A stretch of 64,000 bases of DNA from Thermodesulfobacteriota bacterium (GTDB taxonomy: Bacteria > Desulfobacterota_D > UBA1144 > Nemesobacterales > JAJCZQ01), in assembly GCA_965215275.1 (NCBI GenBank), contig OZ244044.1, positions 352,001 to 416,000 on the forward strand, read 5' to 3'. Both the position numbers and the translations under genes were made by a program. A model generated the notes under the pieces. That model was not told where the DNA came from and made no database searches. It was given only the letters and a program-made list of their open reading frames with translations. This document shows positions 11,582-61,061 of the stretch, in pieces. The stretch's first letter is position 1. Each line of letters opens with the position of its first letter.

Positions 11582-14158
11582 ATGATAAAAATCAAACTTT
11601 TTTACAGTTATAACCATACAGATGAGAAACATAGAGACGAGCTAGAAAAACATCTTTCAACACTAAAAGATGAAGGAAAAATTGATCAGTGGCACGATAG
11701 GAAAATAACGGCGGGATCTAATATTCATCAAGCGATAGATGATAATATGGAAACCGCTCATATAATTTTGTTGCTACTTAGTGCTGATTTTATAAGTTCT
11801 CCTGAATGTCAAAAAGAAATTAAAAAGGCTTTTAAATTAAAAGAAGAAAAAAATATTACGCTAATTCCAATCATTGTAAGACCTTGTTCATGGAAAGATA
11901 TCAATGGCGGTAAACTTAAAAGACTTTTAGCACTCCCACGCGATGGAAAATCTGTAACAGAATGGGATGATAAAGACTCTGCTTGGCTAAATGTATATGA
12001 GGAATTAAAAAAAGTGATTGAAAAAGTGGAAAAGGAAATTAAACCAACCATTAAAGATGAGTTTAAAGTAAAAGAACTATTGTATAACCCAATCACACAA
12101 GACCCATTGGACAAATTATTTATTTATCCTGATCTTTCAGATTCAGAAAATGACAAGACTCTAAATATAGAAAACAATGAAGTTAGTTCTAAAGAATTAA
12201 ACAACTTAAATACTTTTAGTTCTCCTTATGTTCTTATTGATGGTGAAGAACAAAGCGGAAAAACCTCATTATGTAATATGCTGTTTTTGAATTACCTGGA
12301 CTCGGGATTTCATCCCATACTAATTAAGGGTAATAAAATTACTGGTAACGGAGACATTCCAAAAATTACTGATTTTAATTACAGAAATCAATATGATTCT
12401 AATAATAATTATAGTGACATAAGTCAAGAAAAAAGAATTTTATTTATTGATGATATTGATGAACATAAATTAAAAGATAAACATTTTAATGCTTTCATTT
12501 TATCAATTCACAAATATTTTGATAAGGCCATTATTTTTATTCACACACTATCCGACCTATGTAACAAAATCTCAAAGCACAATTATTTTTTCTATTTTAA
12601 ACATTTTTCTATTAAATCTTTTGGACACAAAAAAAGGGATGAACTTATTAAAAGGTGTATATCCATTGATGAAGGAATGGAATTTGACATTGAAAATCCT
12701 GAGCAACTGGAAAGGCGAGATAAAAACACTAAAAATGTCGATACTATTATTGGAACTAATATTGTCCCAAGTTACCCGTTTTTTATTATTACTATTTTTC
12801 ACACTTTTGAATCTGCAACAAACCAGAATTTATCACAAACATCCTACGGACATTGCTACTATGCAATGATAACAATGCAACTATGTAAATCTGGAATTAA
12901 ACCCAAAGATGTAGATTCATACTTTAATTTTCTTACAAGACTTGCCTACTTAATGTTTTATAAAGAATCAAAAACCATTTCTGAAAATGAGTTGGAAGAA
13001 TTTAGAGCAACTTATAGTGAAGAATTTGTTGCTTCGCAGAACTTTGTTAAAAAACTCGCGGAGGTAAACATCTTAAAAGTAAAAGAAGGCACGTATAGCT
13101 TCGGATATATATACATATATTACTATTTCGTTGCCAAATATATTGCAGGGAAAATTGCAAAAGATGATTTAATAAAGCAAAAGTTTCTATCTTTGATGTC
13201 TGACATTCATCTGAAAGATAACGCCAATATTGTCATTTTTGTTACTCATCATATAAAAGATAAAGATGTGCTGGACGATATTATATTGAGTGCTATGGAG
13301 ATATTTGATAAATTCCCTGAGGCAACACTCTCGGGTGATGAAAAGAATTTTATTGAAGAAATAAATAAAATGTTAAGACTTCATCAGCTACCTCCAACTA
13401 AACATGACCCAGAAAAAGAAAGAGATAAAACTCTAATAATTAAAGATAGTATAGAACCAATTGTTAATAAGCATAGAGAACAACAGGAATATAATGAAAA
13501 CAAGTCGTTAGTTGAAATTAGAAAAGCAGCAAAAAGCATAGAAATTATTGGTCAAATCTTGAAAAATCAATACGGTTCATTGGAAAAAAATACTCTAAAA
13601 TTTTTATTTTTAGAAGGACAAAATGTTGGTTTGAGATTGTTGAAAAGTTTTATGGAAATTATGTTACAAGAAAAAGATAAATTAGAAGAAATTGTTAGAT
13701 CTGACTTGGAAAAAACATATAAAAAAGAGAAGAATTTAACAAGTGAACAAATCAATCATAAATCTAAGAAAATTATCAATATGTTTTCTTATTTTGTTAT
13801 TTTTGGATGGTTACACAAAATCGTTAATTCTTTAGGATACAATGAACTTATTAAAATAGCTGATGAAGTCAATTCAGAAAACAAAACAGTTGCTTCTCAA
13901 CTAATTAATCTATATATCAATACTTGGTACACAAAGAAACTAAATTTCAAAAAAATAAAGTCTCTGCATGGAGATTTTAAAAAAGATAAGAACAATCAAG
14001 CTATATATATTCTCAAAGACATAGTTTCTCACTATATTTATATGCATCCAGTCAAATTTAGCGATAAGCAGAAAATTGCAGAACTTTTAGGATTCTCCGT
14101 GCAAAATCAAGTATCAAGACAACAAAAATTTGGATTAATACCAAAAAAGAATAGTTAA
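11582..14158 (+). CDS. TIR domain fused to a STAND-type P-loop NTPase (putative NLR-like anti-phage protein)
   Basis: N-terminal TIR (FYSY.H.D, LSADFISS.EC..E, IPII.RPC.W), Walker A GEEQSGKT, Walker B LFIDD, helical C-terminus. Low GC. Confidence 0.8.
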   Translation: MIKIKLFYSYNHTDEKHRDELEKHLSTLKDEGKIDQWHDRKITAGSNIHQAIDDNMETAHIILLLLSADFISSPECQKEIKKAFKLKEEKNITLIPIIVRPCSWKDINGGKLKRLLALPRDGKSVTEWDDKDSAWLNVYEELKKVIEKVEKEIKPTIKDEFKVKELLYNPITQDPLDKLFIYPDLSDSENDKTLNIENNEVSSKELNNLNTFSSPYVLIDGEEQSGKTSLCNMLFLNYLDSGFHPILIKGNKITGNGDIPKITDFNYRNQYDSNNNYSDISQEKRILFIDDIDEHKLKDKHFNAFILSIHKYFDKAIIFIHTLSDLCNKISKHNYFFYFKHFSIKSFGHKKRDELIKRCISIDEGMEFDIENPEQLERRDKNTKNVDTIIGTNIVPSYPFFIITIFHTFESATNQNLSQTSYGHCYYAMITMQLCKSGIKPKDVDSYFNFLTRLAYLMFYKESKTISENELEEFRATYSEEFVASQNFVKKLAEVNILKVKEGTYSFGYIYIYYYFVAKYIAGKIAKDDLIKQKFLSLMSDIHLKDNANIVIFVTHHIKDKDVLDDIILSAMEIFDKFPEATLSGDEKNFIEEINKMLRLHQLPPTKHDPEKERDKTLIIKDSIEPIVNKHREQQEYNENKSLVEIRKAAKSIEIIGQILKNQYGSLEKNTLKFLFLEGQNVGLRLLKSFMEIMLQEKDKLEEIVRSDLEKTYKKEKNLTSEQINHKSKKIINMFSYFVIFGWLHKIVNSLGYNELIKIADEVNSENKTVASQLINLYINTWYTKKLNFKKIKSLHGDFKKDKNNQAIYILKDIVSHYIYMHPVKFSDKQKIAELLGFSVQNQVSRQQKFGLIPKKNS

Positions 14159-14246
14159 ACTTACAGAAAAATTCATAATTAACAGAAAATTTTTCTACAG
14201 CCTAAGATGACCAATATATCAAATATTGTGGAATCAATCCGTAAGA

Positions 14247-14432
14247 TTAGACATAAAAACGATTGGAAACTGATGTAGAATCTGAGGTAGTAACTTCTAT
14301 ATTTTCAACTTTTCTCTTTGACAAATTGTATGACAAATCTATCAAACTTTTTAAGTTGGGAGACAAGTACTTTTCCATTTTGGCAAGCAGTTCCTCCAGT
14401 TGAAATTCTATATTCTTGTTCTTTTTATCCAT
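14247..14432 (-). CDS. Small hypothetical protein
   Basis: 61-aa ORF with an AGGGGG SD. Confidence 0.45.
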   Translation of the reverse strand: MDKKNKNIEFQLEELLAKMEKYLSPNLKSLIDLSYNLSKRKVENIEVTTSDSTSVSNRFYV

Positions 14433-14572
14433 GTTTATAACCCCCTAAAAGTAATTCATCTATTATATATTGCGTGTTAATCAAAATCTTTAAACATATA
14501 ACTTATAAAATATTCCTCGCTGAATGGTTTCACCAATAACTCTTATTCTTTCCATGAACTAATCAAGGGAAT

Positions 14573-15976
14573 TCATAAGCCAGCCATATACAAATCAGCA
14601 AAAGGTTTGGTTAGTTCCTGCTTAATAGCCGCTATTTTATCATTGAAATCCTGCCCTTCCATTTCTTCATTATCAATTGGAAATTTATTCAAGGCAAACA
14701 AACATTCATCATCAGGGTTTTTCTTTACACGTACCTCCAACCACTTGAGAATATCTGCACTATGAGTGGCAATAACAACGTTCACCCCTCCTTTTGCCAG
14801 TTCAAACAAAGTCTCAGCCATGATCACCTGCCAAGACGGGTGCAAGTGTGCTTCTGGTTCATCAATGAAAAGAAAAGAACCTTTATCTATGACTTTGCGT
14901 TCAATAAGTAAGGCAAGTATACCGAGATTAACAACTCCCATAGCAGCCAGATGCAACGAAAAACTGCGTCCATTTTCCTGAAAACTTAACTCACCAATTT
15001 CAGAAATTGTAAGTTTTCCACCTATAACTTCTTTTGAAGTTAATTTTTCATACAACTCAGAAAAAGCTACATCCCCAGAATATTCCTCTTTCAGTGCTTC
15101 CGCCAAATCGTAAAAGTAACCTGGCACTCCAGTTAATCTTTGCCTTTCTGAAGATGAATAATAAAAACGGGGATTTATTCTACTGTTTTCCAATGCGGAT
15201 TTTAACTTCCAATATATGGGCGATTCAAGATATATGACTTTGGAATAATCCTGGAGTTGCCTAAGTCCAGTCCTTTCAATATTACAACGAACAAGATCAC
15301 CGTTTTGAAACTCAAATGTGCCAACATTATCAATAACGATTTTGGAAGCATCTTCTTTCCGCATTCTCATAGATGAGAAACTCGCCACTTGAAAATTGTC
15401 GATTAAATTCCCATAGACCTTGTTTTGTATGCCGTTTATAACGAATTCCTCAGCATTTGTTTTTTGGATTTCTTCATATAGTCGACCCAATTCCCTCTCT
15501 AAATCCTCTATGTCTCTTTTTATAACATCATTTTGCTCTGATAAAGGCCGCCATTGAACATCTTCTTTAAATTTTTCACACAGCTTCTTCAAACTGACCA
15601 CAGAAGTGCGAATCTTGGGTAGCTGTTCGTCAATTTCCTCAAAATCATCAATGGAACATGACTTAATTAGTTCCTCCATCTTTTTTATCTCGTCATTGAA
15701 AACAGACAATGAAAAATCGTTGCTCTTGTTATTCCATGTTCCCAATCTATCCAGACTGTACCGCAAAGGAGCTACTAAATCGTTAAAACATACTAAAGCA
15801 TGATCAGCATTCATACCGTCAAACAGCGAATACAGTAATTTTGATATGGTACTTTTGCTCGTATTGTTTGGTCCTGCAAATACAGTAAACTGCCCGATAC
15901 GAATTTCTGCATCAGACAATTTACCAAAATTTTCCACTTTGAGATTGAATGGCATTTTTTCTAAAAACAGTCTCAA
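14573..15976 (-). CDS. AAA_15/AAA_21-type ABC-like ATPase (defence-associated family)
   Basis: FAGPNNTSKST (variant Walker A), IDEPEAHLHP.WQ and IATHS. The start may be ATG 15955. Confidence 0.82.
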   Translation of the reverse strand: MRLFLEKMPFNLKVENFGKLSDAEIRIGQFTVFAGPNNTSKSTISKLLYSLFDGMNADHALVCFNDLVAPLRYSLDRLGTWNNKSNDFSLSVFNDEIKKMEELIKSCSIDDFEEIDEQLPKIRTSVVSLKKLCEKFKEDVQWRPLSEQNDVIKRDIEDLERELGRLYEEIQKTNAEEFVINGIQNKVYGNLIDNFQVASFSSMRMRKEDASKIVIDNVGTFEFQNGDLVRCNIERTGLRQLQDYSKVIYLESPIYWKLKSALENSRINPRFYYSSSERQRLTGVPGYFYDLAEALKEEYSGDVAFSELYEKLTSKEVIGGKLTISEIGELSFQENGRSFSLHLAAMGVVNLGILALLIERKVIDKGSFLFIDEPEAHLHPSWQVIMAETLFELAKGGVNVVIATHSADILKWLEVRVKKNPDDECLFALNKFPIDNEEMEGQDFNDKIAAIKQELTKPFADLYMAGL

Positions 15977-16062
15977 TATAACGGTGTATTACGATAATGG
16001 GACTCTCTATACAAATTGGCAAAAATAAAGATATTAGAATCAACGCAGAAATGACCGTTCAT
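15973..16062 (-). pseudogene. Truncated PIN-domain (DUF4411-like) gene stub
   Basis: ATG overlaps the ImmA stop. Translates MNGHFCVDSNIFIFANLY..., matching PIN strand 1 (x-x-D-x-N-I-F-I); stop after 29 codons. Confidence 0.55.
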
Positions 16063-17192
16063 AACCTTTTTTCTAATTCTTTGACTTGAGGTACGAGCTT
16101 TAGATCAAAGGATTTGCACAATCTATGCAAACCTATCTCTTCGTTGTAGTAAGCCTGAAAAAGTGCCTTAGTATAAATTTGCCCAAATTGATCAAAAGCC
16201 TCTTTCGCTCTATCTCTCGACGGTCCGCTCTCTTTCTTCTTTAGCTGATCTTGCATATTCGAGTATTCTATTTTCAGTTCTTTCTCAAATTCCAAATACT
16301 CTTCCTGGCTGATAATTTGCAAAGTTTGCAATCTGACAAGACATGCATACTTGCTGACATGAAATTTGTCAGCAAGTTTTTTCATACCTCGAATGTCGCT
16401 TATTTGGCTACCGGTAACTTCTTTCAAAAAATTCTCTGCAGGCATCAACACTTCACCTGCAAATTGATCACACTCCTTTTCCACCTCTTCATCGTGGACA
16501 TTCCAACCATCTATCTCATTTTCCTTTCTAATCAAATGTCCTAATTCATGTAACAAGGTGAAAGAGTATGCCTTCTTTGCATCGGAACTATTTACGATAA
16601 TAATAGGAAGTGTTGGGTGGTATGTTGATAATCCACGAAACTCCTCTTTTGCAACATGCGACCAACCCTTGTATTTGCTGGTCATAAAAACAAAAATCCC
16701 TTTTTGTTCAAGTTTTTCTTTCCAATCTGGAAATTCAAGGTTTTTGTCAACTCCCAGCCAGCTCCTAATCTTTTCTGCGTATTCTTTGTCCTTAAGGTTT
16801 GTTAATGGTTCAGGGGGCAAAAACGGAGATACAGGTTCATCCAAGTCCATCTGTATCTCAAGTATCAGACTGCGAAAGCGTTCCACTCGTGCTACGAGAC
16901 CACGCACTTTCCAGTTGGAAAATCTTGCAGGTCGTTTTACAAATTTGCGAAATACCGGTACGGATTTAGCAAAATCATATTTTTCCGGCAGTTTCTCTGA
17001 AACAAAGACCCACCGTGGTACTTTATATAATTCAGATAAGGTATCCAGCTGCTTGAAAGTTGGGTACTTTTCTCCCGCTTCAATATCTTTTATAAGAGGT
17101 ACTTTTTTTTCAACATGGTCAATATCCAGTGCCATCTGCTCACGGCACCTACACAATATATCAATGTTGACATTTTTAACTCTTATACTCAT
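16059..17192 (-). CDS. XRE-HTH + ImmA/IrrE family metallopeptidase
   Basis: N-terminal HTH (IEAGEKYPTFKQL), FTLLHELGH zinc motif and E.ECDQFAGEVLMP. Confidence 0.88.
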   Translation of the reverse strand: MSIRVKNVNIDILCRCREQMALDIDHVEKKVPLIKDIEAGEKYPTFKQLDTLSELYKVPRWVFVSEKLPEKYDFAKSVPVFRKFVKRPARFSNWKVRGLVARVERFRSLILEIQMDLDEPVSPFLPPEPLTNLKDKEYAEKIRSWLGVDKNLEFPDWKEKLEQKGIFVFMTSKYKGWSHVAKEEFRGLSTYHPTLPIIIVNSSDAKKAYSFTLLHELGHLIRKENEIDGWNVHDEEVEKECDQFAGEVLMPAENFLKEVTGSQISDIRGMKKLADKFHVSKYACLVRLQTLQIISQEEYLEFEKELKIEYSNMQDQLKKKESGPSRDRAKEAFDQFGQIYTKALFQAYYNEEIGLHRLCKSFDLKLVPQVKELEKRL

Positions 17193-20961: not shown

Positions 20962-20990
20962 TTGACACTACAGTAAAGCAGAAGTAAAAT
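20962..20990 (+). promoter_or_regulatory. sigma70 promoter of S8-Ig copy 1
   Basis: TTGACA-N17-TAAAAT, 9 nt before ATG 21000; conserved in all four paralogs. Confidence 0.7.
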
Positions 20991-20999
20991 ATCAACGTT

Positions 21000-23900
21000 A
21001 TGAAAAGTTCAAACATAAAAACACGTAGTTCCATTACCCCCCCCCGTGTATACCTGACCTTTCAGCCTGGTATAAGTATTCTGTAAGAACAATGTTTAAG
21101 ATAATCCCCCCCCCCCATCTAAGTCATTACTAACCTTAGTCTTTATTCTACTGAGTATCATGGTCATAGCTGCAAAAGGGCAGAGCAGCCTGGAAGAAAC
21201 ATTATCTGAATGCAGAGATATCAGTGCAGGTCTGGAAGATCCGTTATACGGATGTCAGTGGCATCTGAATAACACTGGACAGTTAAGTATTTCCGGAAAG
21301 AGAATAACAGCAGGAGAAGATATTAACGCAGAGGGAGTATGGAACGAAGAGGTATATGGTACTGGAATTAACGTAGCAGTTGTAAGTAATGGAATAGACC
21401 TTTCACATGAGGACCTTTCTGCTAAGGTCCGTTCGGAACTGAACTACAACTTTTCTGGAAAAGATAATTCAGACAGTTCAGAGTTAAGTGGTACACGAGC
21501 GGCAGGAGTAACGGCAGCGGCTGGATATAACGGACTGGGAACAAGAGGAGTTGCACCTGGTGCGAGTATATACAGTAATAAGTTAACAGGAGATCTCAGG
21601 GAATCAGACGCAATGGAAGCAGGGGAAGCAATGGTGCGTAATAAAGAAATAACTGCAGTATCCGTCAGCGACCGGGGATCTGAGGACGGAGTTTTTCTTC
21701 AGGGTGCTTCGGCTGAGTGGGAAGAGGGAGTGGAAGAGGGTATAAGGGAAGGGTTTTACGGCAGGGGAATATTTTACGTCCTGGGAGCAGGGGACGGACA
21801 TGAGAGCGGAGATCAGGCTAATTTTTCTGAATATTCCAATTACTACGGGGTAACAGCGGTGTGTTCAACGGACGGTTCTGGAAAGAAGAGCTTGTTTTCA
21901 GAAGAGGGAGTGAATCTGTGGGTATGTGCGCCTGGTCCTGATATAGCGACCACTGATAGCGACGACGATCACGCCGTGACGTCCGGAACTGTCCTTTCAG
22001 TTTCACGGGTCGCAGGTGTGGCGGCACTGCTGAGAGAGGTAAACGAAGACCTGAGCTGGAGGGATATAAAGCTTATACTTGCGGGTTCGGCACGGCAGAA
22101 CGACGTTCCTGACATTAGCTGGGAGACTGGAGCGGTAAAATACGGTTCCGACGTGGAAAGATACAGATACAGTTCGAAATACGGTTTTGGCGTGGTGGAC
22201 GCGGAGGCGGCCGCAGAGCTTGCCGGAAGCTGGAAAGGAGTGGGAGAAATGAGGACCGTTACAGCTTCCTCGGATAATGAACTGACGATCCCTGATGGAG
22301 AAGGAGAGGCGGACGGGGTCCTTACCTCCAGACTTATGATTTCGGACCTGGAGGAAATATTTACGGAGTTCGTTGAGGTAGAACTCGTTCTCTCGTGTGA
22401 CTGCCTGCAGGACCTCAATATACGGATAACCTCTCCTTCCGGGACAGTATCGGAACTTGTGCGGGAGTCTGCCAGTGAGTTTGTAAGGGGATCTTCGAAT
22501 GAAGAAAACGACTGCGTCAGTTACCTGGGGAAAAAACATCGTTTCGGTTCGGCAAGACACCTCGGGGAAGACCCTTCCGGAGAATGGACCCTTAAGATAT
22601 ATAATACTGCTTCCGGAGATGAAGAAGATACAGAAAATACCGTTACCCTGCACTCATGGAGCATCAGGGTATACGGGCACGGGAAGGGGGATGTTTTAAC
22701 GGAACCCGGCAGTGAGATCACTGCCAAGGCTTTAACTTTGGGTAATGTTCCTGGTGGTAGGCTGACCTGGACGCAACATAAGCTGGTAAACGCAAGGTTA
22801 TTCGAGGCAGCCGGAGGCAGGCCGCCGTATACTTACAGTTTAGCTCCTTTACCTCCTGGATTGAATTTTAACGGAACCACCAGAATTATAAACGGGAGAC
22901 CGACCGCTGCAGGTGACACCGACGTTCAGTATACGGCAAGAGACGCAAATAACGATACGGCACGGAGTGACTTCGTTATAAGGATAACGGCGAACGCCGC
23001 GCCGGTTTTTGGCAGCAAGACGGTTGCTGCTCAGGTGTACACGGCAAGGAAAGCAATAGAACCATTGGAACTTCCCGAGGCAACGGGAGGGGATAGAACT
23101 TTAACTTACAATATAAGTGGTAACGTCAGGGGTATAGGGTTGAACTTTAACCGTAACACAAGGATACTGAGCGGAACGCCCACCAGTGTTACGCCTGGTA
23201 TTACAGCCGTTTATACCGCCACTGACGCAGATGGAGATACTGCCGAACTGAGGTTCAATATACGGGTAAGACATCTGAACGACATACCGACCTTCGGCAG
23301 CCAGATGGTAGATGATCAGAATTGGGTTAACGGCAGCGCGGTAAGGCTAACGCTGCCTCGCGCAAGAAACGGGAATGGAACGTTAACCTACGGTATAACC
23401 CCTGCTTTGCCTGATGGACTGGACTTTGATCCTGGTACCAGAGTGCTGAGCGGAACACCGACCGCTGCGGCACCTGAGAACACTTACACGTATACGGTAA
23501 CGGACAGTGATAACGATATTCATGAAAGTGATTCTGACAGTCTGACCTTCAGGATCACTGTATCAGCGGACGCAATGCCGACCTTTAGCGGTGAGACGAC
23601 GGATGATAAGGAGTACATAGCAGGAAGTCAGATAACGCCGGTAACGCTGCCCGTGGCAACATCAGGAAATACCCCATTAACTTACGATATAACCCCTGCT
23701 TTACCGGATGGACTGGACTTTGATGAAAACACCCGAGTGCTGAGCGGAACACCGACTGCTGCAGCACCTGAGAATACTTACACGTATACGGTAACGGACA
23801 GAGACGGTGATACTGACAGTTTGACTTTCAGGATCACGGTGTCAGCGGACGCAATGCCGAGTTTTGGCAGTGCGACGATAGAAGACAAGGTGACCGTTAA

Positions 23901-24596
23901 CGGCGTTACGGCAGTAATGGAAACACTGCCTCTTGCAACAGGAGGGAACGGAACGCTGACTTACAGTTTAACTGATGCCGGTTCAAATGCTTTGAATTTA
24001 TTTGCCGGACTGGACTGGGATGACAACACCCGGGTGCTGAGCGGAACACCCAATATCGGTTCAGCGCTGCTTCATCTGCTTCCTCGAACCGAGACTTACA
24101 CGTGGACGGTAACGGACGAAGATGGAGACACGGACGATCTGACGTTCAGTATAATTATAGAAGCAGACAGCGATCCGGATTTTGGCAATGAGATGATAGC
24201 AGATCAGGAGTACATAACAGGAAGTCCAATAACGCCAGTAACCCTGCCTGAGGCAACGGGAGGTAATCCACCGTTAAGATACAGTATAACGCTCGTCTGC
24301 CAGCTGGATTGAGGTTTAACAGTAGCACCCGGGTTATAAGAGGCACGCCCGAGAGCGCGTCACCCGAAACTGATTACACGTACACGGTAACGGACAGCAA
24401 TGAAGACACGAACGATTTGACTTTCAGGCTCAGAGTAGCAGTTCCTTCTGCCAGTGGTTCAGGAGGGGGAGGAGGATGTGCGGTCTCGGATCAGAGCAGC
24501 GTCGTTCCTGATATTTTTGGAGCAGTGGCATGTCTGATACTTATACCCGTGTCAGCAGTGATCAGAAGGAAGAGAAGATCTCATATAAAGACGTAG
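21000..24596 (+). CDS. Copy 1: inactive S8 (kexin-like) + P-domain + Ig-like repeat surface protein with polyGly-Cys C-terminal sorting tail; out of frame at poly-C tracts and at ~24292
   Basis: ORFs 21160..24312 and 24309..24596 join across a 1-nt frameshift. The signal peptide frame begins at the C11 tract (21106-21116); C9 tract at 21037-21045. Motifs DPLY..QWHL, WRD...IL, YGFG.VDA, LPxGL.F...TR.ISGTPT repeats and GGGGGGCAV..RRKRR. Confidence 0.8.
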
Positions 24597-32538: not shown

Positions 32539-32603
32539 TTGACATTCAGTTAAGAAAAAGTATAATAGTACGACAATGAAAGTTTCTGCTACCCCCCCCC
32601 CCC
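32539..32603 (+). promoter_or_regulatory. Consensus sigma70 promoter, ATG-AAA and C12 tract upstream of the defence operon
   Basis: TTGACA-N16-TATAAT, ATG at 32576, C12 at 32592-32603. Confidence 0.65.
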
Positions 32604-36134: not shown

Positions 36135-36139
36135 GAAAC

Positions 36140-45703: not shown

Positions 45704-47584
45704 GAAAGGACCTCATTGCTATGCATTTATCCGAGATCTTCTTTTCCTTCTGATAACTACTGACACGGGTATAAGCATCAGACATGCCACTGCTCCGAAA
45801 ATATCAGAAGCAGCGCTGCTCTGATCCGAGACGGCACATCCTCCTCCACCTCCGCCATTACCTGACGTTGGTGGTGGAACCGTTACACTGAGCATGAAAC
45901 TCACATCATCTGTATCTCCATTCCTGTCCGTTACCGTATACATGTAAGTTCTTGTTGATGCACTCCTGGGTGTGCCACTTATCCTTCCGGTGGTTTCGTT
46001 CAATCTCAATTCAGGAGGTAAGGGAGGCATTATACTGTATCTTAACGGTGCATTCCCTCCCGTTGCAGCAGGAAGCCTTATTGGACTCCCACTGTACACA
46101 TGAACTTCTATCATATCACTGCCAAATTCCGGTCTGCTGTCCTCTTCCACTGTTATACTGAACGTTAACCCTTCCATTTCATTATCCTCGTCAGCAGCGC
46201 TCCATGTATGATCAGTCTCAGACGTTGCAGCAGTCGGTGTCCCGCTTATAGTTCTGGTGGTTTCGTTAAAATCCAGTCCATCAGGTAAACCAGGCGTTAA
46301 ACTGTAAGTTAAGTTTCCATTCCCTCCCGTTGCCTCAGGCAGCACGAACGGTGTTATCGGAATTCCTGCTATGTATTCCTTATCCTCTATCATCTCACCG
46401 CCGAAACTCGGTATTGTGTTGGGTTCATTTCTTACAGTGATATGGAACATCAAAGTTCGAGCAGGTCCACCTGCACCGGTAGTAGCAGTATACGTATAGG
46501 TCCTCGCATTCTGTGTAGCAGTCGGTGTTCCGCTTATAACCCGGGTAGCAGGATCAAAACTCAATCCAATAGAAGATAAAACAGGAGTTAAACTGTACGT
46601 TACCGTTCCATTATGTCCAGTTGCCTCAGGCAGCGTTTCCATTACTGCCGTCCCGACCGTATACACCTTGCCTTGTATCTCAACGCCTGAAAAGTGTGCT
46701 CTTACGGCAAGATCGAACATCACCTCCACCGCAGTTCCGTTACCGTCTGTAACGGTATACGTATAGGTCTTCAAAGGCGTTGCAGCAGTCGGTGTTCCGC
46801 TTATAACCCGGGTGGTTCTGTCAAAGGTCAATCCGGCAGGTGGGGCAGGGGTCAGACTGTAGGTATACGGAGCAGTACCTCCCGTAGCAGCAGGCAGCGT
46901 TAATGGTGTTACTGGTCTTTCTGCCAGGTACAAAACAGGAGAAGATACCTGCCCGTCAAAGGACAGGGCCGTTATCGTAATAGAGAAGGTGCGAGTACCC
47001 GTGTCCAGATCATCGTCCATTGCCCTATACGTGTAAGTTCGACCAGGAGCAGCTATGGTCTCGGTTGGTGTTCCGCTTATAACCCGGGTGTTTTCATCAA
47101 AGTCCAGTCCGGCTGGTAAACGAACAGGGGTCAGGCTGTAGCTTACCGTTCCATTACCTCCCGTTGCCTCAGGCAGCGTTACCGGAAGGTTTGCCGATGT
47201 CCCTTGAACATATGTCTGATCAGGGATAGTCTCGCTGAAACTCGGCACTGAATTAGCTTCTATCGTATAAGAGAAGGTCAGAGTATCAGAATCACCGTCA
47301 TCAGTATCCGAGTCAGAGTCAGTTACCTTGTAGGTATAGGTTTCAGTCAGAGGCAGCATATTTGGAGCAACGTTCAATGTCCCGCTTATCTGTCGGTTGT
47401 TGCTGGTAAAGGTCAATCCAGCAGGCAAGGCAGGAGTTATACTGTAATTTAAATTTCCATTCCCGCCATCTGCCACAGGCATTCCCAGCCTTATTGGTCT
47501 GCCGTTACCAAACGTCTGATCCCTCACCTGCGTATCGCCGAAGTCCGGAACGTCAGCTGCAGCTCTTATCCTTATCCTGAACTC
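45704..47584. repeat. Arm A of a 1,881-bp inverted repeat (3' part of copy 2)
   Basis: Reverse complement of 54716..56596; only three amino-acid differences seen. Confidence 0.9.
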
Positions 47585-49600
47585 TATATCAGCCACATCA
47601 TTGGTTTCTAAATCTGTAGCTCTAATCGTATACTCAGTCTCCTCCAACGCTTCCATAGGTGTGCCAGTCATTCTCCAACGGGGAATACTGATGCTCAATC
47701 CACGAGGAAGAACAGTAGGAATTACACGGTAACTTCTTCTCCCAGACCCTCCTGTTAGAGGAGGTAAATCTAATGGTGTTATCTGAACTCCTTCTGTATA
47801 AACCTGATTAGGGATCGTTGCACCGCTAAAGGTTAGATCATGATGTTTAGGACCTGTCTCACTGCCAAGGGATGTAAAAATATCCCCCTTCCCGTGCCCG
47901 TAGACCTTAATGCTCCAGGAGTGTAAGGTAAAAGTATTTTCTTCATCTGCTTCATCTCCGGAAGCAGTATCGGATATATCAAGGGTCCATTCTCCGGAAG
48001 GGTCTTCTCCGAGGTGTTTAGCCGACCCGAAACGATGTGTTCTTCTTACATAACTGATCTCAGCGTCTTCTTCCTCACCTGAAAATTCCCGGACAAGTTC
48101 AGAAACTGTACCGGAAGGAGAGGTTATCCGTATATTGAGGTCCTGTAAGCAGTCACACGAGAGAACGAGTTCTACCTCAACGAATTCCGTAAATATTTCC
48201 TCCAGGTCCGAAATCATAAGTGTGGAGACAAGGACCCCGTCCGCTTCTCCTTCTCCATCAGGGATCGTCAGTTCATTATCTGAAGAAGCTGTAACGGTCC
48301 TCATTTCACCAACGCCTTTCCAGCTTCCGGCAAGCTCTGCGGCTGCTTCTGCGTCTACCACGCCAAAACCATACCTGGGACTATAATTATATCTTTCCAC
48401 GTCAGAACCGTATTTAACGGCTCCTGTCTCCCAGCTCGGATCAGAAACGTCGTTCTGCCGTGCTGAACCCGCAAGTATGAGCTTTATATCCCTCCAGCTC
48501 AGCTGTCCGTTTATCTCTCTCAGCAGTGCCGCCACCCCTGCAACCTGTGCTGCTGAAAGGAACGTTCCGGAAGTTACAACGTAATCGTCGTTGTTATCAG
48601 TGGTTACAATATCAGAACCAGGTGCACATACCCATAGATTTACTCCCTCTTCTGAAAAAATACTCTTCTTTCCAAAGCCGTCCGTTGAACAAACGGCCGT
48701 TACTCCGTAATAGCTGGAATATTCAGAAAAATTAGCCTGATCTCCGCTCTCATGCCCGTCCCCTGCTCCCCGGACATAAAATATTCCCCTGCCGTAAAAC
48801 CCTTCCCTTATACCCTCTTCCACTCCCTCTTCCACTCCCTCTTCCCACTCAGCTGAAGCACTCTGAAGAAAAACTCCGTCCTCCCGTCCCCGGTCGCTGA
48901 CGGACACTGCCGTTATTTCATTGTTGCGGACCATTGCGTCCGCTTCCCCGGGATCACCGGATAACCTGTAACTGCATACATTCGCACCGGGTGCAACTCC
49001 CCTTGCTCCCGATCCGTTGTATCCAGTTGCTGCAATTACTCCTGCCGCTCGTGTTCCGGTAAAGGATGAACCGTCAGACAGATCAACGCTTTCTGAACTG
49101 TTTTCTTCAGAACTGTTTTTTCCAGAAAGATCATAGTTCAGTCCGGAACGGACGTTTGCAGAAAGGTCCTCATGTGAAAGGTCCTCATGTGAAAGGTCCT
49201 CATGTGAAAGGTCCTCATGTGAAAGGTCCTCATGTGAAAGGTCCATACCGTCACTTACTATTGCTACATTAATTCCGGAACCGTATACGCCATCGTTCCA
49301 CACTCCCTCTGCGTTTATATCCTCTCCTGCAGTTATTTCCTTTCCTGAATAAATAAACTGCCCAGTGTTCTTCAGATGCCACTGACATCCGTATAACGGA
49401 TCTTCTGTGTCTGCACTGTTACCTCTGCATCCGGAGAACGGGTCCTTTATGCTGCCCTGTCCCCTTGTATCAACGGATATAAAACACAGAAGAAAAAAGA
49501 CAAAGAAAAGTATGAACCGTCTGCCGTTCCGGCGGGAACTGCCCGTTAAACTACGACGTTGATGGGGGGGGGGATAGAACTCATCATGTTTTTCATACAT
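45719..49600 (-). CDS. Copy 2: inactive S8 + P-domain + Ig-like repeat surface protein with polyGly-Cys sorting tail
   Basis: Full 1293-aa ORF. C10 tract (G10 at 49564-49573) before the signal peptide; promoter TTGACA-N17-TAGAAT at 49635..49607. Confidence 0.85.
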   Translation of the reverse strand: MYEKHDEFYPPPHQRRSLTGSSRRNGRRFILFFVFFLLCFISVDTRGQGSIKDPFSGCRGNSADTEDPLYGCQWHLKNTGQFIYSGKEITAGEDINAEGVWNDGVYGSGINVAIVSDGMDLSHEDLSHEDLSHEDLSHEDLSHEDLSANVRSGLNYDLSGKNSSEENSSESVDLSDGSSFTGTRAAGVIAATGYNGSGARGVAPGANVCSYRLSGDPGEADAMVRNNEITAVSVSDRGREDGVFLQSASAEWEEGVEEGVEEGIREGFYGRGIFYVRGAGDGHESGDQANFSEYSSYYGVTAVCSTDGFGKKSIFSEEGVNLWVCAPGSDIVTTDNNDDYVVTSGTFLSAAQVAGVAALLREINGQLSWRDIKLILAGSARQNDVSDPSWETGAVKYGSDVERYNYSPRYGFGVVDAEAAAELAGSWKGVGEMRTVTASSDNELTIPDGEGEADGVLVSTLMISDLEEIFTEFVEVELVLSCDCLQDLNIRITSPSGTVSELVREFSGEEEDAEISYVRRTHRFGSAKHLGEDPSGEWTLDISDTASGDEADEENTFTLHSWSIKVYGHGKGDIFTSLGSETGPKHHDLTFSGATIPNQVYTEGVQITPLDLPPLTGGSGRRSYRVIPTVLPRGLSISIPRWRMTGTPMEALEETEYTIRATDLETNDVADIEFRIRIRAAADVPDFGDTQVRDQTFGNGRPIRLGMPVADGGNGNLNYSITPALPAGLTFTSNNRQISGTLNVAPNMLPLTETYTYKVTDSDSDTDDGDSDTLTFSYTIEANSVPSFSETIPDQTYVQGTSANLPVTLPEATGGNGTVSYSLTPVRLPAGLDFDENTRVISGTPTETIAAPGRTYTYRAMDDDLDTGTRTFSITITALSFDGQVSSPVLYLAERPVTPLTLPAATGGTAPYTYSLTPAPPAGLTFDRTTRVISGTPTAATPLKTYTYTVTDGNGTAVEVMFDLAVRAHFSGVEIQGKVYTVGTAVMETLPEATGHNGTVTYSLTPVLSSIGLSFDPATRVISGTPTATQNARTYTYTATTGAGGPARTLMFHITVRNEPNTIPSFGGEMIEDKEYIAGIPITPFVLPEATGGNGNLTYSLTPGLPDGLDFNETTRTISGTPTAATSETDHTWSAADEDNEMEGLTFSITVEEDSRPEFGSDMIEVHVYSGSPIRLPAATGGNAPLRYSIMPPLPPELRLNETTGRISGTPRSASTRTYMYTVTDRNGDTDDVSFMLSVTVPPPTSGNGGGGGGCAVSDQSSAASDIFGAVACLMLIPVSVVIRRKRRSRINA
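49161..49244. repeat. 15-bp tandem repeat x5.6 encoding (DLSHE)n in copy 2
   Basis: gaaaggtcctcatgt repeated; a single unit in the other three paralogs. Confidence 0.92.
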
Positions 49601-49821
49601 TCTTGTATTCTACTTCCGTTCTGATGTAATGTCAAGTATGAACTTCTTTTTCTTTTCTTTCCTGCAATGATAAAAATATTCAGGATGTACGGATCATTCC
49701 CTTTTTTATCCCGTTCACTGTAATTGACGGTATTCAGTTTCCACTGATAATAATAAAGGGTAAAATACAGCCTGTAAACCGTTCAGGGTAATACCCATTT
49801 TTCAGAGGAGGTTCATAATAA

Positions 49822-50981: not shown

Positions 50982-51088
50982 ACGGGCCCGTGGACGACCC
51001 GACCGCTTTAAAAGAGTTCCGGTATGATCTTTGTTGTTTCAGATGTACAGTACTGATAAGTACGGGAGAAAGGGCAGTTGACCGGTCG

Positions 51089-51412: not shown

Positions 51413-52420
51413 TGGTGAATATACTTTACCATAAGAAGGTATTTACAGAAAAGGAACTGTTGTTATATGTAGGTCTATCTGCTGGCAACCGTTGTCGGTC
51501 CGTATTTTTTTAGTTTTATCAAGTTTTCAGATTTGTATTATTTACAGTTACAGGTTATCATATAAAGCTAACTAAACGTAAAAAGGTGTATACGTATAGA
51601 TTAAAAAAGGGAATTATATAAAATAGTAAACAAGGTATCAACAGGAACAGGATAATGTATAGAGATAATTAAGGTTTTCACTTGATAAACCGGCAGTTTG
51701 AGTTCATGGGGATGTTCCCTGGCAAGAGGTCAGCGGAAAAACGGTTTGAAAGGCCGTTATGTAGAGACGGGAGATATTGGCGTCAGTGTCCGAAGTGGCA
51801 GTATAACGGCAACGGGTAATATATCGTTTCAGGAAAAGGTTATTGGCAGTATACCTGACAACCGCAGGTTTGAAGGTATTGTCCGGTCGTAAAACGGGAA
51901 GGTATACGGGAACTGTGCAGAAAACGGGTCGGTTTTTTCCGCACGGGACAGGAAAGGGTCTGAAGAGCAGTCTGATTATCATTTAAAGTAACAGAAGGAA
52001 CACGGGGAGGAAGCAGAAAGGCAAAGTCATCAGGAACAGACGGGAGGGTCATGGTAAAGGCAACTAAAACCATAAAAAGTGAGGCATCATAAGGTATGAC
52101 GGACGGAAGTGCATGTCCATACAAAGGGACAGAAAGTTTCCGGTCTGCGTTGCAAGAGGTTTTGCAGGAATGTATCACAAGACGTCAGGGAAACATTTAC
52201 AAAGATGTACAGATGAGCATGCAGGAAGGCGTAACAACGGAGCATTGCCGACCGTGGATCAGGTCGAAGACATGATCAGGGGGTCGCGTGGCAATAGAGA
52301 TCAAATACTGTTGATGAATGATCCCTACATCCTGAATTATTTTTATCATTGCAAGAAAGGTAAAGAAAAAGAAATTCATACTTGACATTCGTTCATAATA
52401 CAAAGTAAAATATCAATGTT

Positions 52421-55400
52421 ATGAAAAGATCAAATATAAAAAAGCGTATCTCCATTACCCCCCCCCCCGTGTATACCAGACCTTTCAGTTGTACACGGGT
52501 ATCCTGCAATGACAATGCCTGAGCTTATCCCCCCCCCCATCAACGTCATAGTTTAACGGGCAGTTCCCGCCGGAACGGCAGACGGTTCATACTTTCCCTT
52601 GTCCTTTTTCTTCTGTGTTTTATATCCGTTGATACAAGGGGACAGGGCAGCATAAAGGACCCGTTCTCCGGATGCAGGGGCGTCAGTGCAGATACGGAAG
52701 ATCCGCTGTACGGGTGTCAGTGGCATCTGAAGAACACGGGGCAGCTTGGTTTTTCCGGAAAAGCAGTAACAGCAGGAGAAGATATAAACATAGAGGGAGT
52801 GTGGAACGAAGACGTATATGGTTCTGGAATTAACGTAGCAGTAGTAAGTAATGGAATAGACCTTTCACATGAGGACCTTTCTGCAAACGTCCGTTCCGGA
52901 CTGAACTGGAGTTATTCCGAAGAAAACAGTTCTGAAAGCGGTGACCTGTCTGATATTTCATCCTTTACCGGAACACGAGCGGCAGGTGTAATAGCAGCTT
53001 CTGGATATAACGGACTGGGAGTAAGAGGAACTGCACCTGGTGCGAGTATATACAGTTATAAGTTAACTGATGATATCAGGGAAGCGGACGCAATGGATGC
53101 AAGGGATGCAATGGTCCGTAATAAGGAAATAACTGCAGTATCGGTTAACGACTGGGGACCGGAAGATAAATATTCTCTTCATCAGGCATCATCTGTCTGG
53201 GAAGAAGGAGTGGAACTTGGAATAAAGAAAGGGTTTTATGGGAAAGGAGTGTTTTACGTCCGGGGAGCAGGGGACGGGCACGAGAATAACGATCAGGCTA
53301 ATTTTTCTGAATATTCTAATTACTACGGAGTAACTGCCGTTTGTTCAACGGACGGCTTTGGAAAAAAGAGTGTATTTTCAGAAGAGGGAGTAAATCTATG
53401 GGTATGTGCACCTGGTTCTGATATTGTAACCACTGATAACAACAACGAATACGTTGTAACTTCCGGAACATTTCTTTCAGCTTCACAGGTTGCAGGGGTG
53501 GCAGCACTGCTGAGAGAGGTTAATGGAGAACTGAGCTGGAGGGATATAAAGCTTATACTTGCGGGTTCAGCACGGCAGAACGACGTTTCTGATATTAGCT
53601 GGGAGACTGGAGCTGTTAAATACGGCTCTGACACGGAAAGATATAAATATAATCCTAAGTATGGTTTTGGCGTGGTAGACGCGGAAGCAGCTGTAGAACT
53701 TGCCAGAAGCTGGAAAGGCGTTGGTGAAATGAGAACCATTACAGCTTCTTCCGATAATGAACTGACAATTCCTGATGGAGAAGGAGAAGCAGATGGGGTC
53801 CTTGTCTCCAGACTTATGATACCGGACATGGAAGAAATATTTACGGAATTCGTTGAGGTTGAACTTGTTTTTTCTCATGACCGATTACCGGACCTTAACA
53901 TACAGATAACCTCTCCTTCCGGGACAGTATCGGAACTTGTAAGGGAGTTTTCAGTTGAGGAAGAAGACGCTGAGATCAGTTACCTGAGAAGAACACATCG
54001 TTTCGGGTCGGCTAAGCACCTCGGAGAAGACCCTTCCGGAGAATGGACCTTAAAGATATCTGATACTGCTTCCGGAGATGGAGAAGATGGGACCTTACAC
54101 TCCTGGAGCATTAAGGTATACGGGCATAAGAAGGGGGATACCGCTGCAGACCTTGCTAAGGAGATAACTACTAAAGCTTTAAATTGGGGCGGACAGACAG
54201 TTCAGGATCAGGTGTACAGAGTAGGAACTCAGATAGCACCGTTACAGCTGCCTGAGGCGACCGGGGCAGAAGGAATAACGTACAGTATAAAGCCTGGTTT
54301 ACCTGCTGGGCTGGAGTTTAACGATACCACCAGAGTTATAAGCGGAACCCCAACTAAATCGCAGTCTAATGAACGTTATCAAATTGTTGCCAGAGACGCA
54401 GACGGGAACGTGAAGGGTTTAGCGTTCCATATAAGGATAAGGTTCCGTAACTCCACGGTACCGAGTTTCAGCGATACCATCCCGGATCAGAACTATGTAA
54501 CGGGGAGATCAATAACGCCACTGGTGTTCCCTCGTGCAACGGGAGGGGATGGTCAGTTAAGGTACACTTTTGACGGCACTTTAACTAACTTACCAAATGG
54601 ATTGAGCCTTTCCAGGAATCCGTTCAGGATAATTGGAACACCAGGTAGTGGTAGTGCGGGGACAAGTACCTGGCAATATACCGCTACTGACACAGACGGG
54701 GATACTGCTACACTTGAGTTCAGGATAAGGATAAGAGCTGCAGCTGACGTTCCGGACTTCGGCGATACGCAGGTGAGGGATCAGACGTTTGGTAACGGCA
54801 GACCAATAAGGCTGGGAATGCCTGTGGCAGATGGCGGGAATGGAAATTTAAATTACAGTATAACTCCTGCCTTGCCTGCTGGATTGACCTTTACCAGCAA
54901 CAACCGACAGATAAGCGGGACATTGAACGTTGCTCCAAATATGCTGCCTCTGACTGAAACCTATACCTACAAGGTAACTGACTCTGACTTGGATATTGAT
55001 GACGGTGATTCTGATACTCTGACCTTCTCTTATACGATAGAAGCTAATTCAGTGCCGAGTTTCAGCGAGACTATCCCTGATCAGACATATGTTCAAGGGA
55101 CATCGGCAAACCTTCCGGTAACGCTGCCTGAGGCAACGGGAGGTAATGGAACGGTAAGCTACAGCCTGACCCCTGTTCGTTTACCAGCCGGACTGGACTT
55201 TGATGAAAACACCCGGGTTATAAGCGGAACACCAACCGAGACCATAGCTGCTCCTGGTCGAACTTACACGTATAGGGCAAGGGACGATGATCTGGACACG
55301 GGTACTCGCACCTTCTCTATTACGATAACGGCCCTGTCCTTTGACGGGCAGGTATCTTCTCCTGTTTTGTACCTGGCAGAAAGACCAGTAACACCATTAA

Positions 55401-57114: not shown

Positions 57115-60100
57115 TCATTGCCAGGTCCTTATCCGAGCTCTTTCCTTCCTTCTGATCAATACCGACACGGGTATAAGTATCAGACATGCCATTACTCCAG
57201 GAATATCATAAGCAACACTGCTCTGATCTGATACAGCACATCCTCCTCCACCTCCGCCTGGATCACTACCTGACGTTCTTGTTGGTCCTGGTCCTGGAGT
57301 AGAAGGAACCTCTGCACTGAACCTGAAGGTCAACTCTTTCATGTCTCCATTCCTGTCCGTTACCGTGTACGTGTAGGTCCTCTCAGACGACGCACTCGCG
57401 GGCGTCCCGCTTATTATCCCTGTGTTTCTGTCCAATCTCAACCCAGGAGGTAAGGGAGGCGTTATACTGTATACTAACGGTGCATTCCCTCCCGTTGCTA
57501 CCGGCAACCTTATTGATCTCCCCATGTACACCTGATCTTCTATCGTCGTCACGCTGAAGTCCGGTTCGCTGTCTTCTTCCACTGTAATACTGAACTCCAG
57601 TTCATCTGTATCATTATCTGCGTCCGTTACTGTATACGTGTAATCAGTCTCAGACGTTGCAGTAGTCGGTGTTCCGCTTATAACTTGTGTAGCAGGGGTA
57701 AAATCCAATCCGGCAGGTAAGGCAGGAGTTAAACTGTAAGTTAATGGTGCATTCCCTGACGTTGCCACAGGCAGTGTTTTTTCCATTACTGCTTCTCCGT
57801 TTATATACACCTTGTTATCTATAGTTTCACTCCCGAAGCTTGGTTCTGTGTCAGGTTCTGCTCTTACTGTGATATTGAACGTCTTTGAGTTCTTAAATCC
57901 ATCTGTGTCAGTTACCGTATAAGTATAAGTGCTTCTGGAAGTTGCAGTATCTGGAGTTCCACTTATCTCTCGGGTGGCAGGGGTAAAATCCAGTCCGGAA
58001 GGTAAATTGGGAGTTAAACTGTACGTTAACGTTCCATTATGTCCATCTGCTGCAGGCAGCACTTCTGTTACTTCTGTACCGGTTAAATACACCTTATCAT
58101 TTATCACAGCACTTGTGAAGAGTGCTCTTACAGCAATATCGAACATCAATTCAGCCGTATGTCCGTTATTGTCAGTAACGGTATACGTATAGGTAGTCCT
58201 GGGCGTTGCAGTAGTTGGTGTCCCGCGTATAGCTCTGTCATTAGAGTTATACGCTAATCCGGCTGGTAATACAGGAGTAACACTGTATATATATGGAGGA
58301 GTACCTCCCGTTGCAGCAGGCAACGAATTACTCGTTAGAGTGGGTATTGATGATAATGCATTTGCTATTAATGTATAAAAATCAGTAAAAGACCCACCGT
58401 CAAAGGCCAGGTCCGTTATAGTAATAGAGAAAGTAATACTGTCAGAATCACCGTCATCATCAGTTACCTTGTAGGTATAAGTTTGAGTTACAGGTAATCC
58501 ACTTGGAGAAACGTCGAGCGTTCCACTTAACGTTCTGGTGTTTTCGTTATAATCCAATCCATTAATTTTAATTGGATCACCTATACTATTAGTTAAACTG
58601 TAATTTAAAGTTCCATCCCCTCCCGTTGCAGCAGGCAGGGTTAACGTTACTGCTCTGCCGTTACTCCACACCTGATCTTCTACCGTCTCACTGCCGAAGC
58701 TTGGTCCAGTGTAAGCTGTTATCGTTATATGGAATTGACGGGTGCGGAAAAAACCCTGGGGACTTGAATCTGTTGCCACATATACAACATTGGTCACACC
58801 CACAGTAGTTGGTACCCCACTTAACACTCTGGTGTCACGATCAAATTCCAATCCATTAGGTAGAGGGTGAGTAAAAGCAAATCTATAATTATATGGAGCG
58901 GTCCCTCCCGTTGCTTCAGGCATCACTTCACTTACTAGTCTACCTTGTTCGTAGACCTTGTCACTAATAAGTGGCAAGGTTGTTATTTTAGTAGTTATCT
59001 CCTTGCCACGGTCTGATAAAAAAACATGCCCGTAGACCCTGATGCTCCATGAGTGTAAGGTCCCGGTATTTTCTGAATTTTCTGCTTCTCCATCTCCGGA
59101 AGCAGTATCGGATATTTTAAGGGTCCATTCTCCGGAAGGGTCTTCTCCGAGGTGTTTAGCCGACCCGAAACGATGTGTTCTTCTCAGGTAACTGATCTCA
59201 GCGCCTTCTTCCTCCCCTGAAAACTCCCTTACAAGTTCCGATACTGTCCCGGAAGGAGAGGTTATCTGTATATTGAGGTCCTGTAAGCGGTCATGAGAAA
59301 AAACAAGTTCTACCTCAACGAATTCCGTAAATATTTCCTCCAGGTCCGGTATCACAAGTCCGGAGGTAAGTACCCCGTCCGCTTCTCCATCTCCATTTTC
59401 TTCTCCATCAGGGATCGTCAGTTCATTATCTGAAGAAGCTGTAACGGTCCTCATCTCTCCAACGCCTTTCCAGTTTCTGGCAAGTTCTGCGGCTGCTTCC
59501 GCGTCTACCACGCCAAAACCATACCTGGGACTATATTTATATCTTTCCACGTCAGAACCGTATTTAACAGCTCCGGTCTCCCAGCTCATGTCAAAAAAAT
59601 CGTTCTGCCGTGCTGAACCCGCAAGTATAAGCTTTATATCCCTCCAGCTCAGCTGCCCGTTTATCTCTCTCAGCAGTGCTGCCACTCCTGCAACCTGTGA
59701 AGCTGACAGGAACGTTCCGGAAGTTACGGTGTAGCCACCACCGTTATCCGTGGTCACGATATCAGAACCAGGTGCACATACCCATAGATTTACTCCCTCT
59801 TCTGAAAAAATACTCTTCTTTCCAAAACCGTCAGTTGAACAAACGGCCGTTACTCCGTAATAGCTGGAATATTCATTAAAATTAGCCTGATCTCCGCTCT
59901 CATGCCCGTCCCCTGCTCCCCGGACGTAAAACACTCCTTTCCCGTAAAACCCTTTACTTATTCCAAGTTCCAATCCTTCTTCCCAGGAAGATGAAGCCTC
60001 CTGAAAAAAAGCTCCGTCCTCAGATCCCCGGCCGTTAACAGATACTGCGGTTATTTCTTTATTACGGACCACCGCGTCCGCTTCACTGAGATCACCGGAT

Positions 60101-60736
60101 AACCTGTAACTGTATATACTCGCACCGGGTGCTACTCCTCTTGTTCCCAGTCCGTTATATCCAGTAGCTGCAATTACACCTGCCGCTCGTGTTCCGGTAA
60201 AGGATGAACCGTCAGAAAGATCAACGCTTTCTGAACTGCTTTCTTCAGAACTGTTTTTTTCAGAATAACTCCAGTTCAGACCGGAACGGACGTTCGCAGA
60301 AAGGTCCTCATGTGAAAGGTCCATTCCATTACTTACAACTGCTATATTAATCCCGGAACCGTATACGTCATCGTTCCACACTCCCTCTATATTTATATCT
60401 TCTCCTGCAGTTATTTCCTTTCCTGAATAACTTAACTGCCCAGTGTTCTTCAGATGCCACTGACATCCGTATAACGGATCTTCCGTTTCTGTACTGATAC
60501 CTCTGCATTCAGATAACGTTTCTTCTAAGCTGCTCTGCCCTTTTGCAGCTATTACCAGTATAAACAGAAGAAATAAGACTAAAGAAAGGATTGACTTAGA
60601 TGGGGGGGGGTATTATCTTAAACATTTTTCTTATAAAATACTTATACCAGACTGAAAGTTCACGTATACACGGGGGGGGGGTAATGGAACTGCGTGTTTT
60701 TGTTTTTATGTTTGGATTTTTCATGAAATTTTTCAT
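57115..60736 (-). CDS. Copy 4: inactive S8 + P-domain + Ig-like repeat surface protein; out of frame at the second poly-C tract
   Basis: The main frame is open from 60612 (ORF track starts at 60381). G9 at 60602-60610, G10 at 60672-60681; promoter TTGACA-N18-TAAAAT at 60775..60746. Confidence 0.82.
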
Positions 60737-61061
60737 AACACTGATATTTTACTTCGTATTATGAACGAATGTCAAGTGTAATTTCCTTTTCTTTCCTTTC
60801 CTGCAATGACAATGATATTCAGGATGCACGGATCATTCCCTTTTTTTTCCCGTTCACTGTAACTTGCGGTATTCAGTTCCCACTGATAATAATAAAGGGT
60901 AAAATACAGCCTGTCAACCGTTCAGGGTAATCCAAAAAATATGTATAAGAATGAATAAAGAAAACAATACCAGGACCTCCGATCAATGTAGAGTTTGGCC
61001 GCCGTACCTGCAATACCGACCGGTAGATCATCAAAGGGCCTGAAAGTAAACAAAAGCAAGA

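Follow-up and report, generated by a model that had tools for sequence, protein, structure and literature searches.

Subtilases that have lost catalysis are, to our knowledge, known as one or two genes per genome. CspC and CspA of Clostridioides difficile are pseudoproteases of the subtilisin type that have non-catalytic roles and whose pseudo-active sites are conserved (CspC Thr170, Gly485; PMC7200643), NalP of Neisseria meningitidis is a surface protease switched by a poly-C run, with 7, 10 or 13 C giving the ON state (PMC3723659), the Opa proteins of Neisseria number 11 per strain (PMC5320596), and the kexins of Pneumocystis carinii form a species-specific expansion of 39 copies against 0-1 in its kin, many of them predicted to be surface-anchored (PMC4764891). 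Aeromonas ASP is, by the title of its reference, propeptide-deficient (PMC5638518), and the MYXO-, Synerg- and JDVT-CTERM systems combine a tripartite tail containing an invariant Cys with a CPBP protease (bioRxiv 10.1101/2023.06.07.544157).

The window, i.e., the whole 64,000-nucleotide stretch of DNA analysed here, carries four genes that are built alike: a signal peptide is followed by S8 and P-domains, He_PIG repeats and a membrane tail that is rich in Gly and contains a Cys. In all four, the Pfam S8, P-domain and He_PIG models score above their cut-offs. We consider it reasonably probable that they belong to a phase-variable repertoire of kexin-fold surface proteins that are non-catalytic and stand on Ig-like stalks; the bacterium is probably a symbiont of a sponge. 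Their features are given below in window coordinates; positions labelled G000 refer to the whole genome.

20962..20990, forward strand: gene 1, sigma70-type promoter match TTGACA-17-TAAAAT (sequence pattern)
21000, forward strand: gene 1, distal ATG
21037..21045, forward strand: gene 1, upstream C9 tract; the ORF from ATG 21000 ends 8 nt before the proximal ATG 21092
21100..24312, forward strand: gene 1, open frame (signal peptide, dead S8, P-domain, He_PIG stalk), exiting its frame near 24285-24295
21106..21116, forward strand: gene 1, C11 tract that sets the frame, within the n-region of the signal peptide; ATG 21092 out of frame (OFF)
~21238-22230 and 22369-22668, forward strand: gene 1, dead S8 domain and P-domain
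21385..21993, forward strand: gene 1, pseudo-active site, with Ser 21385-87, Ser 21487-89, Asp 21793-95 and Val 21991-93 replacing D/H/N/S
21664..21717, forward strand: gene 1, strand and loop of the former substrate-binding site (VSDRGSEDG...); variability within the dead class peaks here
24462..24596, forward strand: gene 1, Gly5-Cys / TM / basic tail in a frame differing from that of the head (assembly sequence only)
45719..49600, reverse strand: gene 2, 1293 aa, in frame (ON); signal peptide, dead S8 (S/T/D/F), P-domain, He_PIG stalk, tail
49253-55, 49058-60, 48758-60 and 48560-62, reverse strand: gene 2, codons for Ser, Thr, Asp and Phe at the D/H/N/S positions
49564..49573, reverse strand: gene 2, C10 tract (coding strand), the same in four runs from three studies
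49607..49635, reverse strand: gene 2, promoter match TTGACA-17-TAGAAT, lying 6 nt upstream of the ATG
52382..52411, forward strand: gene 3, promoter match TTGACA-18-TAAAAT
52458..52468, forward strand: gene 3, upstream C11 tract, with a +C variant in a single X3 contig (weak)
52523..56581, forward strand: gene 3, open frame; dead S8 (S/T/D/F), P-domain, stalk, tail
52529..52538, forward strand: gene 3, frame-setting tract, C10 in the window and run X2, C11 in run X3
52847-49, 52967-69, 53273-75 and 53471-73, forward strand: gene 3, codons for Ser, Thr, Asp and Phe at the same positions
57115..60612, reverse strand: gene 4, open frame, OFF; dead S8 (S/T/D/F), P-domain, stalk, tail
60331-33, 60196-98, 59908-10 and 59710-12, reverse strand: gene 4, codons for Ser, Thr, Asp and Phe at the same positions
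60602..60681, reverse strand: gene 4, tracts C10 (60672-81) and C9 (60602-10)
60746..60775, reverse strand: gene 4, promoter match TTGACA-18-TAAAAT

Several further observations concern these genes and their neighbourhood. The head and stalk of gene 1 are split from its tail by a frameshift at ~24285-24295 that is either real or an assembly error, and its S8 plus P-domain protein is 100% identical to that of the copy at G000:1102330. The S8 domain of gene 2 contains LSHED five times in tandem and a duplicated EEGV (~49165-49240, reverse strand). An inverted pair of 1863-bp segments, 99.8% identical, links genes 2 and 3 (45722-47584 vs. 54716-56578), and recombination between these repeats could flip the intervening 7 kb and thereby swap the heads. 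Beside the 3' end of gene 2 lies an IS1595-family transposase (44323-45264), and a Fic protein is encoded at 39882-41048. A C12 run (32592-32603) precedes a defence-like operon (33091-39307: DUF6361, an unassigned protein and a helicase), and 11582-17192, with an AT-rich TIR plus STAND-NTPase gene, an AAA_15 ATPase and an IrrE-like protein, is a likely defence island.

A first, sequence-only reading of this DNA had proposed that all four S8 domains lost their catalytic residues and preserved the fold, and both parts hold. Alignment with Kex2, followed to the codons, places VSNG against VDDG, SGTRAAG against HGTRCAG, GDG against GNG and GTVLSVS against GTSAAAP; Asp, His, Ser and the oxyanion Asn are gone in 4/4 domains, the D/H/N/S positions of the four genes reading Ser, Ser/Thr, Asp and Val/Phe. 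An AlphaFold2 model of the S8 and P-domains of gene 1 (pLDDT 78, pTM 0.86) matches furin and Kex2 with a TM-score of ~0.81. Given that D/H/N/S is kept in 137 of 147 S8 domains from other organisms, the loss in the window genes is not a matter of chance; the exceptions are scattered single cases or truncations, and a second search of outside domains (75/95 intact, 13 truncated) left the picture unchanged. With the triad and the oxyanion Asn missing, the window proteins are, judged from their sequences, non-peptidase homologues of kexin-like S8 proteins. No His has been gained, since the conserved His residues of the dead S8 domains are also present in active relatives. The Glu/Asp richness noted earlier is an enrichment, but a modest one only (a fraction of 0.168 for gene 1 and of 0.159 across the dead class vs. 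0.128-0.129 in the comparison sets of active domains and long ORFs).

The view of these genes as four pseudo-enzymes was correct as to the lost residues but too narrow, as the family has 57 copies genome-wide. In the genome, a single 1.99-Mb contig of 99.9% completeness, the 57 S8 plus P-domain paralogs occupy 175 kb (8.8% of the DNA), and at least 51 of them are open through to the tail. The triad is kept in 7/57, at least one residue is missing in 50/57, and 29/57 are fully dead in the manner of the window genes; named by their residues at the D/H/N/S positions, the classes are 6 DHNS, 1 DHDS, 1 GHDS, 10 DRDS, 5 DRDA, 2 DRNA, 1 N-DA, 1 SHDA, 29 fully dead and 1 truncated. In a quick IQ-TREE phylogeny of 84 rows (56 G000 copies, leaving out one N-terminally truncated copy, and 28 chosen outside domains; midpoint root, recombination ignored), the paralogs form one clade (SH-aLRT 100) with the active copies basal, a 53-row clade opens with the change of His to Arg (SH-aLRT 98) and the fully dead class is nested deepest (100). 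Catalysis was lost stepwise along this tree, in the order N>D, H>R, S>A and D>S, ending in S(S/T)D(F/V). The ten DRDS paralogs (e.g., G000 1336543-1339041), in which His is replaced by Arg, Asp and Ser are kept and the cleft strand is invariant, possibly have a separate binding function or an unusual chemistry.

The lack of a prodomain pointed out in the same reading is real but is not a mark of the dead copies. The N-terminal propeptide of kexin-like S8 proteins is absent in the dead copies, and the active paralogs have a PPC-like domain, i.e., an extra N-terminal domain of 120 aa found in 7/7 triad-intact and 10/10 DRDS copies and in 0/29 fully dead ones (Atlas support for the PPC-like assignment scores <0.9 and is a lead only). 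We rejected this domain as a candidate prodomain, as its profile matches the PPC region of outside relatives. Given that active paralogs carry it and that ASP too is propeptide-deficient, a classical prodomain was not lost together with catalysis. Two further proteins combine the family leader and tail with PPC-like domains only and no S8 (G000 627284-628603 and 1649106-1650047), and a leader stands without a gene behind it at G000 633539.

No close relatives were matched in 119 other genomes of the same class, a set that includes four of the same family, one of them an 80%-complete congener in 190 contigs. The nearest outside domains are 38-47% identical and come from genomes titled Dehalococcoidia, Binatia, Poriferisodalis and Spongiisociaceae, which we take to be sponge symbionts; going by these record titles, the host of the bacterium is probably a sponge. 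Among the sequences searched, dead classes recur solely in other assemblies nested within the same clade, and a metagenome scan returned four distant loci. Three outside proteins (L021, P0037 and L037) have a tandem S8 pair with a degenerate first member (S/R/-/S, D/H/N/A and D/H/G/S), the His-to-Arg change having arisen independently in L021.

The dead copies appear to be selected pseudo-enzymes, as had been suggested: pairwise dN/dS among 28 of them (leaving out the truncated copy and one broken copy) is 0.29 for the S8 and 0.26 for the P-domain, no His was gained, and all pairs with dS >0.02 have dN/dS <1 (378 pairs in all). The active copies show 0.37 (S8) and 0.44 (P). What such a domain does is another matter. 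The suggestion that it binds substrates or inhibitors without cutting them can be developed into a decoy or trap, in which the dead head holds host substrates or protease inhibitors uncut in the old cleft and so shields the active paralogs. The preserved fold speaks for this, as do the acidic residues aligned with Kex2 Asp/Glu, presumably near S1, kept in 25-29 of the 29 dead copies, and the ten-copy D/R/D/S subclade, which keeps its Ser and shows 0 amino-acid changes and 5 silent ones in the cleft segment. For the window subclass, however, the suggestion is not supported: the Ser-Trp-Gly substrate-binding strand, whose Trp is kept in 4/29 and Ser in 0/29 fully dead copies, reads Gly/Asp-Arg/Leu/Trp-Gly in the window subclass, the nucleophile position is Phe (21 copies) or Val (8), and conservation is lowest in this strand. 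The stretch 21664-21717 is the top 18-codon window for amino-acid change in the dead class, with a dN/dS of 1.32 pairwise and 0.84 by minimum-change count, near that of the P-domain loops. Positive selection on the cleft loop, a candidate we considered, fails this stricter count, and we regard the segment as relaxed, possibly diversifying. The substrate-binding strand has been remodelled, which weakens the inhibitor-trap idea, and we consider a decoy unlikely.

The missing in-frame starts of genes 1, 3 and 4 are explained by a poly-C run that separates the ATG from the core of the signal peptide. Such a leader run is present in 50/51 altered copies vs. 0/6 DHNS copies (Fisher p 2e-7, with paralogs not independent); two DHNS copies have C9 and C17 runs that are internal and in frame, and a G13 run splits the GHDS copy. 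The reading frame is set by the leader run in 49 copies, 11 of which are in frame from the proximal ATG and 38 out (7/49 in frame if the distal ATG is obligatory); the automatic frame call of 40 OFF, 9 ON and 8 without a tract was hand-corrected at three loci. Genome-wide there are 139 C/G runs of at least 8, 78 of them at S8 starts, and run lengths are distributed as 78 runs of 6, none of exactly 7 (~8 expected) and 68 of 9. Runs of at least 9 number 133 in this genome vs. 21, 3, 0 and 0 in four genomes of the same family; MutS and MutL are present, which counts against a phase-variable repertoire. The promoter pattern TTGACA-17/18-TA(A/G)A(A/G)T has 55 matches genome-wide, 48 of them just upstream of S8 paralogs; by a separate count, 47 of the 57 copies have a match of their own. 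Among the 27 leaders with two runs, the upstream ORF is fused to the frame of the proximal ATG in 8, ends within 8 nt of the proximal ATG in 15 and ~40 nt before it in 4, an arrangement suggestive of translational coupling. Poly-C/G runs also mark the 5' ends of methyltransferase-like genes, lie within TPR-like genes and precede lipoprotein-like genes, as labelled by motif (G000 828763, 834720, 1001504, 1048699, 1814702 and others).

Tract length was compared between samples across 49380-52640, where three tracts have distinct flanks, using contigs (which drop rare alleles) and not raw reads. At 52529, the gene 3 tract is C10 in run X2 (sample S1) and C11 in run X3 (sample S2) in contigs that are otherwise identical, the C11 contig carrying all the depth there in X3; C11 puts the ATGs at 52509 and 52515 in frame, and C10 leaves both out. 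Both runs come from one study, with X2 perhaps being the source sample. In X2, X3, X5 and X6 (four runs, three studies) the gene 2 tract stays at C10, and one His-to-Arg DRDS copy is in frame in G000 and two other assemblies, so some states are stable. Taken together, one of the three locus-specific tracts varies clearly between samples, one weakly, and one is unchanged. Tract-length variation between samples is thus clearly seen at one locus, and switching within a lineage may be reversible. Contigs of the gene 1 leader had indels only at the two tracts; they were discarded as evidence of switching, as paralogs share these flanks.

The stable ON states could also mean that most copies are silent donors, a recombination reservoir for a few stably expressed loci, with tract switching rare. 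That just 11/49 are in frame agrees with this, as does the mosaicism of heads and stalks (the two share their best partner in 5/37 copies, and four near-identical stretches of 1.2-1.9 kb link paralogs). We nevertheless find it very unlikely, given that most copies have their own promoter match and remain open to the tail, and that a copy out of frame here is in frame in another sample. Less credible still is decay or artefact, i.e., that amplified genes are pseudogenising or that the frameshifts are homopolymer assembly errors: 38/49 copies are indeed out of frame, some have downstream breaks (gene 1 included) and homopolymers are error-prone, but dN/dS is 0.26-0.29, the out-of-frame breaks concentrate at one conserved position, X2 contigs repeat C10 (X2 may be the source sample), gene calls in other assemblies likewise begin at an internal Met, and the related genomes have 0-21 runs of at least 9 against 133. 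We give least credence to the dead copies being regulators that assist the 6-7 active paralogs, themselves without a prodomain, as their chaperones or partners, for which subtilase pseudoproteases acting as regulators (CspC/CspA) and the external chaperone of ASP (ORF2) are precedents, because active relatives elsewhere have no such dead class in the searches made and 50 dispersed switchable copies on long stalks would be needless. A dead-versus-active complex prediction (score 0.04) is given no weight here.

Surface anchoring of the family proteins is predicted from their tails. We counted 59 Cys tail motifs (signature Cys, TM helix, basic tail), none above the cut-off of a named Cys-type CTERM HMM (Synerg-CTERM, 15.6-15.8 bits vs. 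22.5). The genome has one CPBP protease, directly upstream of a paralog and below the myxosortase cut-offs (65 vs. 100 for Mrt_core); GspD scores above its cut-off, and rhombosortase (TIGR03902) has no match in the 99.9% complete genome.

Returning to the phase-variable repertoire, the reading that we favour, the catalytically dead kexin-fold domain would serve as a non-cutting head on an Ig-like stalk, maintained by purifying selection, and slippage of the poly-C run in the signal-peptide coding region would switch each copy on or off, reversibly within a lineage. In 27 copies, a second tract further upstream would determine whether a short ORF runs into the gene or ends beside or well before the proximal ATG, and may thereby tune translation. 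The product would be exported by Sec and type II secretion, its Cys tail cleaved and anchored by the only CPBP protease of the genome, and the resulting variable coat or adhesin could alter recognition by the host (probably a sponge) or by phage. More tentatively, we postulate that in a sponge symbiont a kexin protease became an antigenic-variation system in which ~50 inactive heads recognise different host ligands through remodelled clefts. Each head would be under one or two poly-C switches, acquired while catalysis was being lost, and a second subfamily (Arg in place of His, Ser retained, an unchanging cleft) would have a distinct binding job; this larger scenario is possible rather than probable.

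One genome thus spans the path from active enzyme through intermediates to dead scaffold, and pseudoenzyme evolution becomes testable protein by protein. Phase variation in the style of pathogens, at such a scale and in a likely invertebrate symbiont, would imply strong selection on surface identity without adaptive immunity. Precedent exists for each ingredient; the combination and its scale had no description in the open-access literature searched. What is new is the count of 57 copies, the stepwise decay of the active site, the association of tracts with lost catalysis, and the between-sample switch.

The described systems each resemble a part of this one. CTERM/myxosortase systems share the layout of tail plus CPBP protease, but here tail and protease fall below all curated cut-offs. 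The P. carinii kexin expansion differs in being fungal and GPI-anchored, and the accessible part of its description (PMC4764891) mentions neither catalytic loss nor repeat switching. Kexin/furin and Aeromonas ASP share the S8 plus P-domain fold (TM 0.78-0.82) and ASP also the propeptide deficiency, whereas the window family is without the triad and oxyanion Asn and has a He_PIG stalk and a Cys tail. CspC and CspA are likewise subtilisin-like pseudoproteases but are soluble spore proteins that keep their prodomain, and the CspC pseudoprotease model NF040808 gives the window family 15-33 bits against a cut-off of 675. NalP, itself a subtilase, is a single active autotransporter; in the present family switching concerns inactive copies, and leader tracts are missing from the intact ones. 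Closest in organisation are the Neisseria Opa proteins, dispersed surface-protein paralogs each frame-switched by its own repeat, which sits in the signal peptide; there, however, the repeats are CTTCT pentamers and the proteins beta-barrels, and here poly-C runs, often two in tandem, precede ~50 pseudoproteases.
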